Source: a bacterium
GTDB taxonomy: Bacteria > Myxococcota_A > UBA9042
Direction: 5' to 3'
Length of the DNA stretch: 63,901 nt
Assembly (NCBI GenBank): GCA_030425545.1
Contig: JAUIAC010000004.1
Coordinates: 1 to 63,901 of the forward strand
Shown: positions 56,501 to 59,500 of the stretch, piece after piece
Position numbering within the stretch: position 1 is the first letter of the stretch
Layout: each line of letters opens with the position of its first letter
The notes under the pieces: generated by a model
What the model was told of the DNA's origin: nothing
The model's input: the letters and a program-made list of their open reading frames with translations, nothing else
The model's database searches: none
Position numbers and translations under genes: made by a program

Positions 56501-59500
56501 GCTACCACCCCTACTACAAGGAGTACTGGTACCCCGAGCACGGCACGAGCAAGATCCACCGCTACAACGCGCAGCTGAAGGAGACCGGCAGCTTCGACAT
56601 CGGCTTCTCGAGCGTCTACGCCATCACGGGTCACGTCAGCGCCAACGACGCGTACGTCGCGCGCTACTCGGGCAGCTCGTCGACCTCGCGCATCTACAAG
56701 ATCGAGGGCGGCACGTCGAACGTGCAGTGGACCAGCCCCTACATGACCACCTACCTGAGCGGCGTCGCGGCGGACGACGACTACGTCTACACCAACCGCT
56801 ACAACTCGCAGACCATCTACCGCCTGCTCCGCACCAACGGCACGCTCGACGGCACCTTCAGCCTCACCGGCCAGTGGTCGGGCAGCTCGATGTACGGCGG
56901 CCTCACCGTGGTGGGCAGCAAGCTCTACCGGGCCACGACGGACCGCTGGGTCTACCGCTACGACCTGAGCACGGGCGCCTTCGACGGCGTCATGTGGCAG
57001 GTGCCGGTGGCGCCCTACTCGTCGGCCTTCAACGGCACCGAGATCTGCTACGGCGACAGCAGCACCGCGCGCCGCATCTACTGCCACCCGACGCCGGCGT
57101 CCCACATCAACTTCACGCCGCGCCCGCTGGGCATGGACGTCAAGAGCAACGGCGGCGGCTTCCACCCCTTCCACAACGAGTACTGGTTCCCGCAGTGGTC
57201 GGGCGGCTGGGTGTGGCGCTACGGCATCAACAACACGCCGCTCGGCAAGTTCGACACCAAGCTGACGTCGACCTACCAGCTGTGGGGCGAGAAGAAGGAG
57301 GACTCCTTCTACACGGTTCAGTACAACTCCAACTCGTCGACCTCGCGGGTGCGCAAGCTCAAGGGCAAGACCAGCACGGTGCTGTGGACCGCACCGCCGC
57401 TCTCGTCCTACATGAGCGGCGTCGCCGCCAGCGATGACTACGTCTACGCCATGCGCTACAGCGGCAGCACCGTGTGGAAGCTCAGCAAGACCAACGGCAC
57501 GCTGATCGAGAGCTTCAACCTGAGCGGCTCCTTCTCGGGCAACAACCTCTACGGCGGCCTGGCCATCGAGAACAACAAGCTCTGGCGTGTCGACTCGAGC
57601 GGCTACACCTACCGCTACGACCTGACCACCAAGGCCTATGACGGCATCTCGCTGAAGATGTCGGTCAGCCCGCGCGTGCTCGCGTTCAACGGCACCGAGT
57701 TCTGCGTGTCGAACGGCTCGCTGGGCCAGGTGTACTGCTACGCCATCTACGACACCGAGAACGGCAGCGTGGACGAGGGCTGCGACGACGACGCCGACGG
57801 CTACTGCGACGACGACATGGTCATCACGCCCAACGGCACCAAGGTCACCTGCCCGAAGTCCAAGCAGACCTGCGACGGCAAGGAGTCCAACGGCTACTGC
57901 TACAAGGCCGTGAACACGGGCACCACGTGGCCGCAGGCCGAGCAGGCTTGCGACGACTGGGGTGGGCACCTGTCCTCCATCGAGAACTCGGGCGAGCAGG
58001 ACCTGGTCAGCTCCCTCGCGGCGAGCGCGTGCGGCAACATCAGCTACTGGATTGGCCTGCGGGACAACAACGCGGAGGGCTTCTTCAGCTGGACCGACGG
58101 CGTCGCCAACTCCTTCGACAACTGGAACACCAACGAGCCGACGTCGAAGACCAAGCTCGGCCTGTTCAAGGGCTCCACGCTCCTCGGCCCGACGCAGATG
58201 GCGCAGATCAACTCCTGGATCGGCACGCCGAACAAGGGCTGGAAGCTCTGCTACAAGAAGAGCGTCGACGGCGGCAACAGCAGCACCTTCCACAGCAAGT
58301 GCAACGGCAAGGGCGAGACGGTGACGGTCATCCGAGCCAACACGGGTCGCGTCTTCGGTGGCTACACCACCTACAGCTGGACCAACAGCTCGGGCTACCG
58401 CTCCGCGAACAAGTCGTTCCTCTTCTCCATCTCGAGCAACACCAAGCACGAGAACACGAACTCGAGCTACTCGATCTACACGAGCTCGAGCTACGGCCCG
58501 ACCTTCGGCGGCGGCCACGACCTGTACGTGAACTCCAGCCTGAGCGGCGGCTACACCTACTTGGGCCACAGCTACAACTGCAAGGTGGGCAGCTACGGCT
58601 CGAACCAGTGCCGCGACTACCTCGCGGGCAACTACAGCAGCTGGTCGATCACCGACATGGAGGTCTACTACGTCGACACGGTCGGGGTCTCGAACGGCCA
58701 GGACTACGTCGCGGCGGATCACACCGGCAAGTGGGCTGACGTGGCCAACAGCAGCCAGCTCAACTGCTACGTGTGCAAGCGCAAGCTCACGGCGGCGCAG
58801 TACGGCAAGGGCGACGACTGCAGCGACGACGACGCCTCGCAGAACCCGGCGACCCCCGAGGTCTGCGACGGCAAGGACAACAACTGCAACGGCGTGGTCG
58901 ACGAGGGCTGCGACGACGACCAGGACGGCTACTGCGACGCGACGATGCTCACCGTGGGCAGCCCGTCGATCTGCGTCAACGGCGGCGGGGACTGCGACGA
59001 CTACAACGTCAACATCAACCCGGGCAAGACAGAGAGCTGCCTGACCAACTTCGACGACAACTGCGACGGCTCCACCACCGCCATCAACGCGACCGGCTGC
59101 ACCAACCTGTTCTACGACAAGGACGGCGACGGCTACGGCACGAGCTCGTTCCAGTGCCAGTGCGCCGACCAGACCTGCCAGTCGGAGCCCTACAAGGAGA
59201 CCTTCGACAAGACCTTGACCGGGTGGACGTTCAACAAGTGCGCCGCCGGTACGCAGACCAACCCCACCAGCTGCTCGTCCTACTCGGGCACGCAGGGTTG
59301 GCAGCACGACTTGAGCGGCAAGTTCATGGCGGCGGGCAAGGGCGCGCTGTACTACGGCGACCCCAAGCTGGCGAGCTACAACTTCGGCAACACCGCCGGC
59401 ACGGCGCGCTCGGCCAAGTTCAAGGTGCCAGGCACCGGGTCGCCCAAGTTCAAGGCCTCCGTGTTCATGGGGGTCGACTCGGGCGCTAGCACCGACGTCT

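Follow-up and report, generated by a model that had tools for sequence, protein, structure and literature searches.

A TLDc domain nested in the long loop of a C-type lectin-like domain in a giant cysteine-rich protein of an uncultured bacterium

TLDc is a widespread fold with links to disease through proteins such as OXR1, NCOA7 and TBC1D24. The eukaryotic proteins that carry it are intracellular V-ATPase interactors; for the animal domains V-ATPase binding is on record and catalysis has been predicted, with no enzymatic activity confirmed (PMC8608904). Domain insertions of the A1-B-A2 class, in which one domain interrupts another, have been surveyed in ECOD, where multi-level nesting also occurs and 77% of the inserts are smaller than their hosts (PMC13114784). 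The text and the available supplements of that survey mention neither Lectin_C nor TLD, and our literature search retrieved no paper joining TLDc with C-type lectins and none describing the function of a bacterial TLDc. Here we describe a 63,901-nucleotide stretch of contig JAUIAC010000004.1 (assembly GCA_030425545.1, positions 1 to 63,901 of the forward strand; hereafter the window), which encodes a protein of 6062 residues where a TLDc domain interrupts a CTLD (C-type lectin-like domain). The CTLD and TLDc folds, curated bacterial TLDc and domain insertion as such are already known; the novelty lies in the nested arrangement of the two, structurally convincing and not described before, which is seen in a small group of giant proteins of uncultured bacteria.

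The protein is encoded by a single open reading frame (ORF) at positions 44551-62739 of the forward strand, which specifies 379 Cys residues in one uninterrupted frame. The GC content at its third codon positions (GC3) is 0.97, compared with 0.50 and 0.47 at the first and second positions, so the ORF is clearly coding and its frame unambiguous; the long ORFs in other frames and on the opposite strand are by-products of the high GC content. All the peptide strings quoted in the original prediction, which had been made from the letters of the window, are found in frame in this ORF. The N-terminal part of the CTLD (residues 4439-4530; positions 57865-58140, forward strand, as for all features of this protein) takes in the Cys pair of the beta-hairpin, then alpha1 and alpha2, the WIGL strand, and the long loop as far as NWNTNEP; it matches positions 3-78 of the 107 in the Pfam Lectin_C profile and ends with FDNWNTNEP. 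There follows an insert of 184 residues (4531-4714; 58141-58692), somewhat longer than the roughly 175 first estimated, made up of a 9-residue linker, TSKTKLGLF (58141-58167), the TLDc domain, hereafter TLDc 1 (residues 4540-4708; 58168-58674), and a 6-residue linker, DTVGVS (58675-58692). The CTLD picks up again at residue 4715 (nucleotide 58693) with NGQDYVAADHTGKWADVANSSQLNCYVCKRKL, and the resumed stretch, which reads NGQDYVAADHTGKWADV...CYVCK, supplies strands beta3 (QDYVA), beta4 (KWAD) and beta5 (CYVCKR) of the C-terminal part (residues 4715-4746; 58693-58788).

Profile searches bear out that a complete TLDc lies in the Ca2+/sugar-binding long loop of the CTLD, in agreement with the original prediction. 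The insert gives a strong and full-length match to Pfam TLD (PF07534; E=1.5e-27; 97.1 bits, the cut-off being 24.5; profile positions 3-169 of 170). As encoded, the CTLD matches Lectin_C (E=9.6e-12, 46 bits, cut-off 22.6) and the match stops at profile position 78 of 107, which is where the insert starts; when residues 4531-4714 were deleted in silico, the match became complete (3-107 of 107) and rose to 58.4 bits, a gain of 12.4 bits. The spliced CTLD also aligned end to end with CTLDs of known structure in the PDB, namely those of DEC-205 (CTLD2), PLA2R, the mannose receptor and CD23, and in the alignment with DEC-205 CTLD2 NEPN falls on NEPN and YVCKRK on YVCKRK. The full spliced match and these end-to-end alignments imply that the last 32 residues supply the end that the CTLD lacks as encoded, and do not merely resemble it by chance.

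Like the long-form CTLDs of CD23, DC-SIGN and the DEC-205/mannose-receptor group (PF00059), the spliced host domain matches the whole Lectin_C profile and has the WIGL motif, the N-terminal Cys hairpin and the C1-C4 cysteines, but it differs from them in the 184-residue insert in the long loop, in the absence of the C2-C3 pair and in having EP-T and WAD for EPN and WND. Cys residues are present at the C0/C0' (4441, 4450) and C1/C4 (4467, 4742) positions; those of C2 and C3 hold Tyr and Ala/Asn, and the EDC/WNDxxC cysteine pair is absent. An additional pair (4494 and 4739, SAC...NCYVC) is common to the host and to the unsplit relative P0151 described below, and the loss of the EDC/WNDxxC pair appears to be a trait of this bacterial CTLD subfamily, where the SAC...NCYVC pair would replace it. 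The likely disulfides, 4467-4742 and 4494-4739, placed from sequence, would each join one Cys of the first CTLD piece to one of the second. Against the canonical collectin pattern that had been read into the resumed CTLD, the host lacks the EDC/WNDxxC cysteines and has WAD rather than WND.

A word-index search with the spliced CTLD returned no homologue; an exhaustive search, which covered 1.84 billion representatives, did find relatives. The closest uninterrupted CTLDs belong to P0151, a Cys-rich metagenomic protein of 1836 residues, and are 46-51% identical to the N-terminal half of the window CTLD. The P0151 CTLD reads ...FNWNFGEPNNSGNEDAVEFFPDGKWNDIKATDLRGCYVCER, its loop and end being summarised as GEPNNSGNEDAV...KWND (in P0151, GEPNNSG-NEDAV), and like the host it is devoid of the EDC/WNDxxC cysteine pair, yet it keeps WND. 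In the alignment with P0151, TLDc 1 and its 9- and 6-residue linkers stand in place of the 4-residue NNSG loop, between the EPN position and the Glu preceding strand beta3. The original prediction had set the break right after the EP of the EPN/QPD position; the break does follow NEP, but the Asn directly following the insert aligns with the first residue of N-E-D, just ahead of the conserved Glu, and not with the Asn of EPN. The host is thus continuous once the insert is removed, it has unsplit homologues in P0151, and the TLDc is complete and has stand-alone or terminal homologues, as in a domain insertion. With about 170-184 residues against about 125, the insert exceeds its host, which is the minority case relative to the norm of the ECOD survey. 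DNA repeats and recombination signatures were searched for beside the insertion junctions, and none were found.

The nested segment was modelled with AlphaFold2 (AF2). A first run used an alignment of TLDc-only homologues with no rows over the CTLD flanks; the insert was folded with a predicted local distance difference test score (pLDDT) above 95 and the CTLD halves had values around 35, so this run was uninformative on reassembly and is superseded by the second. That second run was based on an alignment in which the window was joined by nested segments from five orthologues and by 29 CTLDs that have no interruption; mixtures of CTLD-only with TLDc-only rows, whether X-padded or not, came out misaligned from MAFFT and were not used. 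The resulting model has a mean pLDDT of 89.2 and a predicted template modelling score (pTM) of 0.68, with block means of pLDDT of 83-98 for CTLD residues 11-100; in TLDc the block means run from 81 to 98 and are mostly at least 90, the C-terminal CTLD strands reach 92-97, and the first and second linkers have about 67 and 72. For the TLDc fold, values of 90-98 were obtained in both independent runs. A Foldseek comparison of this model with the PDB retrieved the lectin domains of CD23 with template modelling (TM) scores, normalised to the target, of 0.89-0.90 and a root mean square deviation (rmsd) of about 2. These alignments extend over 316 columns, the targets having about 130 residues each, and so bridge the insert and draw on both CTLD halves. 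For the TLDc part the matches were the NCOA7-AS structure 7obp (TM 0.85, rmsd 2.4), zebrafish OXR2 (4acj, TM 0.82) and also 8ar9, Skywalker (6r82) and mEAK7 on the V-ATPase; TM scores for 7obp, 8ar9, 4acj and 6r82 range from 0.71 to 0.86. The two CTLD pieces, of 92 and 32 residues, are accordingly predicted by the model to reassemble as one normal CTLD, as had been proposed for the flanks. Neither outcome named beforehand as refuting the original prediction was thus seen: the modelled flanks fold as one CTLD, and the TLDc match of the insert is significant.

The same architecture with the same junction was found in eight other sequences, or nine with the window. These are three giant proteins, P0082 (6157 residues, 52-56% identical, with query residues 2-322 matched in one stretch), P0083 (5406 residues) and P0088 (6517 residues), the fragments P0129 and P0155, and the metagenome loci L003, L004 and L005; each carries a nested TLDc at the same CTLD site, and the spliced orthologues all gave a full-length Lectin_C match. 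Among the best 150 representatives, nesting was confined to this giant-protein family. Identity to the window is 34-55% in the N-terminal half of the CTLD, 43-56% in TLDc and 41-56% in the C-terminal half, and mostly 0-33% in the linkers, with 20-33% among orthologues for the first linker and variable residues in the second. Similar conservation of the folded parts and lower conservation of the linkers is what would be expected if both domains were folded and constrained. The nested sequences come from ENA, JGI, NCBI and TARA Oceans (mesopelagic and deep-chlorophyll-maximum samples, 0.22-3 um fraction), P0155 and the further orthologue P0217 being from TARA samples; the family is at least partly marine, and its host bacteria are probably marine and Myxococcota-like, the latter judged from the MopE repeats, the Ser/Thr kinase, TPR and PP2C neighbours, the high GC content and the names borne by the nearest TLDc matches. 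A metagenome-type contig and a highly repetitive gene could raise the suspicion of a misassembly, a frameshift, or a truncated CTLD with a chance Cys-containing tail around an ordinary TLDc. This explanation is essentially excluded by the single frame with its GC3 of 0.97, by the tail, which adds 12.4 bits to the Lectin_C match and packs onto the N-terminal half in the AF2 model, and by the recurrence of the arrangement on independent contigs from ENA, JGI, TARA and NCBI, which implies that the nesting did not arise in assembly.

In classical C-type lectins such as MBP-A and DC-SIGN, the ligands of Ca2+ site 2 and of the sugar are the Glu and Asn of EPN/QPD, the loop Glu, and the Asn and Asp of WND. 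The window departs from this canonical set, with E-P-T at the first motif, Gln where the loop Glu would stand and W-A-D at the last. The WND position reads W[A/S/T]D in all nine TLDc-bearing CTLDs, the Asn being lost in every one, and the Asn of EPN is kept in a single case (P0083). By comparison, WND and EPN/QPD are both kept in the four related CTLDs that carry no TLDc, that is, the three unsplit CTLDs of P0151 and a CTLD of P0083 that carries a different insert, domain X. Since the WND Asn is lost throughout the TLDc-bearing group and kept in relatives lacking TLDc, the canonical Ca2+/carbohydrate site of the host appears to have been abandoned; the correlated loss argues that the host dropped canonical sugar binding once TLDc filled the loop, and suggests that it adapted after the insertion. 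The host CTLD is probably not a Ca2+-dependent carbohydrate-recognition domain. The original prediction had instead supposed that ligand binding is coupled to TLDc, with a CTLD still working as a Ca2+-dependent lectin whose glycan binding would act allosterically on TLDc, or the reverse. The insertion does lie exactly in the loop bearing the EPN/QPD specificity motif, the Glu-Pro of EP is retained, as is the Asp of W-x-D, and the loop Glu is kept in P0129, P0155 and L004 (as DED or KED). However, given the loss of the WND Asn in nine of nine and its retention in the nearest CTLDs without TLDc, the restriction of the EPN Asn to P0083, and the Gln at the loop Glu of the window, we regard such coupling as very improbable.

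The TLDc of the window resembles those of the eukaryotic proteins (OXR1, NCOA7, TLDC2, mEAK7, TBC1D24) in its fold and its full Pfam TLD match, but it is 17-21% identical to them, bacterial, apparently extracellular, and nested instead of C-terminal. To our knowledge, bacteria offer TLDc no V-ATPase partner of the eukaryotic kind, and neither V-ATPase binding nor protection against oxidative stress, as shown for animal members, is expected of an extracellular bacterial domain. The subfamily to which it belongs has the motifs FHxxC(D/N)xKG, FLFSL and YGPTFGGGHD, and T223, G225 and D229 are invariant across 82 sequences; TLDc 1 contains 4 Cys. Its nearest relatives, at 39-51% identity, include C-terminal domains of secreted bacterial proteins, some in metagenome-assembled genomes (MAGs) labelled Myxococcales or Deltaproteobacteria, PEP-CTERM-anchored TLD proteins, proteins of rotifers and corals that combine a BTB/K-tetramerisation domain (Pfam PF02214/PF00651) with TLDc, and IFI44-like proteins of molluscs. 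Scanning two peptide patterns on metagenome contigs yielded at least 510 TLDc relatives, and the scan of genome contigs yielded one TLDc-only locus, in a Deltaproteobacteria MAG. With these relatives, and with a curated NCBIfam model for bacterial TLD proteins (NF038124), the premise that TLDc is mainly eukaryotic was not supported, and the domain is not rare in bacteria.

TLDc 1 reaches 105 bits with NF038124, above the cut-off of 100. The NF038124 proteins and the secreted bacterial proteins with a C-terminal TLDc (P0002, P0005, P0006, P0021 and others) are of the same subfamily, 39-51% identical and secreted; in them, however, TLDc is terminal, whereas in the window it lies inside other domains of a 6062-residue protein without a PEP-CTERM anchor, and the kinship is at the domain level only. 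The coral proteins P0244 (Porites lutea) and P0247 (Stylophora pistillata), with the order Lectin_C-EGF-EGF-TLD, also combine a CTLD with a TLDc of the same subfamily and are of secreted type, but their domains are in tandem and not nested, and the CTLD of P0244 keeps QPN, EDC and WND. The pairing of CTLD and TLDc is thus not unique to the giant proteins; the nesting is, as far as the searches reached.

A second TLDc domain, about 300 residues downstream of the first and 53% identical to it, interrupts another domain of the same protein (residues 4876-5238). The N-terminal part of this second host (4876-5009; 59176-59577) is tentatively a MAM/choice-of-anchor-J-like beta-sandwich; it is followed by TLDc 2 (5010-5182; 59578-60096; Pfam TLD E=1.4e-22, 80.9 bits, profile positions 5-167 of 170) and by a C-terminal part (5183-5238; 60097-60264). 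With NF038124, TLDc 2 scores 92.7 bits, below the cut-off. In a neighbour-joining tree of TLDc domains the deep nodes have bootstrap values of 7-38 and support is limited to shallow pairs, too little resolution at depth to separate ancient paralogy from homogenisation for TLDc 1 and TLDc 2. The spliced second host gave weak matches to InhA-like_MAM (E=0.0055) and to the PDB structure of InhA (4yu5, E=0.012), the latter with an alignment crossing the splice point, and choice_anch_J was matched in two of five spliced orthologues (best E=1.2e-5). The nesting of TLDc in the second host is also present in four orthologues (P0082, P0083, P0088 and P0217).

Nesting goes deeper in some members of the family. 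In P0088 (residues 4708-5180) and L005 (2351-3979), two independent sequences, a domain of about 125 residues, here called X, lies in the first loop of the TLDc that is itself in the CTLD, which amounts to three levels; X is absent from the window protein and matched no Pfam family. P0083 (residues 3525-4135) contains a second, complete CTLD whose EPN/QPD loop is occupied by a homologous X, and this X-carrying CTLD as a whole interrupts the TLDc-bearing one after alpha2 and before the WIGL strand. When the three pieces of the outer CTLD of P0083 were joined, Lectin_C matched positions 2-106 of 107 with 59.4 bits, compared with 17.4 and 36.9 bits separately. Two combinations were observed: CTLD>TLDc>X and, alongside TLDc, CTLD>[CTLD>X].

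We favour, with a probability of roughly 0.6, a true domain-in-domain architecture that arose once and has been kept since, with the CTLD as pedestal and TLDc as functional head. The insertion would have occurred in the ancestor of a family of Cys-rich secreted or surface proteins of 5400-6500 residues in uncultured bacteria. The CTLD, whose Ca2+ site seems to have been given up and which we take for that reason to be a rigid pedestal, would project TLDc from the face where CTLDs usually bind ligand, so that TLDc would take over from the binding loop of the lectin itself and become the exposed functional head. TLDc would then probably serve to bind some target on other cells or matrix, an idea that fits its companions in the protein, namely a SUEL lectin domain, a MAM-like domain, propeller-like repeats and MopE repeats. 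Since the second TLDc is displayed from a loop of another beta-sandwich, such loop-grafting appears to be a repeated design in the family.

The same abundance of nesting could be read differently, as a tolerated accident in which recombination within huge repetitive genes put folding domains into permissive loops and the nesting, which would persist only for the reason that both domains can still fold, has no functional meaning. Many events are seen in the family (X in a CTLD loop of P0083, X in TLDc in P0088 and L005, CTLD in CTLD in P0083, and TLDc in the second host), and domain insertions are frequent overall, being present in about 20% of multidomain proteins (PMC13114784). A neutral insertion of this kind is plausible given the frequency of nesting, but it is disfavoured, and in our judgement unlikely, since nine sequences with no more than 41-56% identity share the position of the junction, the two halves of the host equal the insert in conservation, and the correlated loss of the WND Asn suggests adaptation of the host.

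Several points count against the pedestal-and-head interpretation. In the AF2 model the relative orientation of CTLD and TLDc is only moderately confident (pTM 0.68), and only five alignment rows spanned TLDc together with the CTLD. The argument on the Ca2+ site is built on sequence motifs, and the Glu of EP, the Gln and the Asp remain, with Ser or Thr at the WND position that could still bind metal. We know of no biochemical function on record for any extracellular TLDc, and the role of a binding head is a guess from position and context. The second host is probably a MAM/choice-of-anchor-J-like beta-sandwich, a weakly supported assignment, and when it was compared by hhalign with the N-terminal MAM-like domain of the same protein, no significant match resulted (probability 1.3%).

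A bolder extension is that the giant-protein family is a natural loop-grafting system whose loops serve as ports for whole domains, up to three levels deep, and that the extracellular TLDc is a working ligand-binding or catalytic head at the place where a lectin would bind its target; we hold this for speculative and doubtful. The candidate ports would be the long and the alpha2-beta2 loops of the CTLD, the first loop in TLDc, and one loop in the MAM-like sandwich. If it were true, the family would provide a tractable, soluble extracellular system for finding the biochemical activity of TLDc. An extracellular bacterial TLDc on the ligand-binding face of a lectin domain, with a further copy on a second scaffold, points to an outward-facing recognition or effector role unlike the regulation of the V-ATPase. 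The tolerance of a small host (about 125 residues) for a larger insert (about 184) in a functional loop, and its recursive nesting, are also relevant to engineering by domain insertion, and the family may be of use in studies on the diversification of giant adhesin-like proteins in bacteria. As long as it has no assigned function, the nested module is an architectural curiosity, and a defined ligand or activity of the TLDc head would raise its interest.

The rest of the 6062-residue protein is in keeping with a surface setting. Its N-terminus has a signal peptide and a possible lipobox (..LVMFASC), and it contains Dicty_CTDC-like repeats rich in Cys, MopE-type repeats (about 31), a SUEL lectin domain, six to seven propeller-like repeats of about 217 residues and the two nested TLDc domains; it ends with ...GQNQASPKPQ, with neither a PEP motif nor a transmembrane tail. 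From the signal peptide and possible lipobox, the very many Cys and the lectin- and adhesin-type modules we infer that the protein is exported or located at the surface, and the position of related bacterial TLDc domains at the C-termini of secreted or PEP-CTERM-anchored proteins was counted as support for an extracellular setting. The SUEL-type D-galactoside/L-rhamnose-binding lectin domain (49810-50049; Pfam E=8.7e-22) lies amid the MopE repeats and was missed by a Pfam scan of the whole 2000-residue segment. The MAM-like domain at residues 826-995 is 66-75% identical in the orthologues and unchanged in position, the orthologues being collinear here too. Six of the ~217-residue repeats, each starting GGGYH..KEYWYP and with weak PQQ_2/BamB-like propeller matches, stand in tandem at 53851-57800, and a further copy follows the second TLDc at about 60450-61100. 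Similar repeats occur together with three TLDc domains in P0117, a transcript labelled choanoflagellate that may be bacterial contamination.

About 9 kb upstream of the giant ORF, positions 32982-35237 of the forward strand encode a 751-residue protein with three DsbA/thioredoxin-like domains (Thioredoxin_4 E=2e-61), which could be a dedicated disulfide-forming helper for the 379-Cys protein. The region 30001-40000 has a GC content of 0.72-0.76, compared with 0.64-0.68 elsewhere in the window, and the codon-position GC patterns of its ORFs are less clear. Large proteins that bear Ig-like domains of the ASH/HYDIN/Cep192 type and PKD-like domains are encoded in a cluster at 4359-9503 (reverse strand) and 22556-30401 (forward strand). 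Next to them are TPR proteins, a phosphatase of the PP2C type (85-1176) and a Ser/Thr kinase (41413-43455), a gene content typical of Myxococcota-like genomes. The Ser/Thr kinase is also present on a Logan contig of run ERR3428545.

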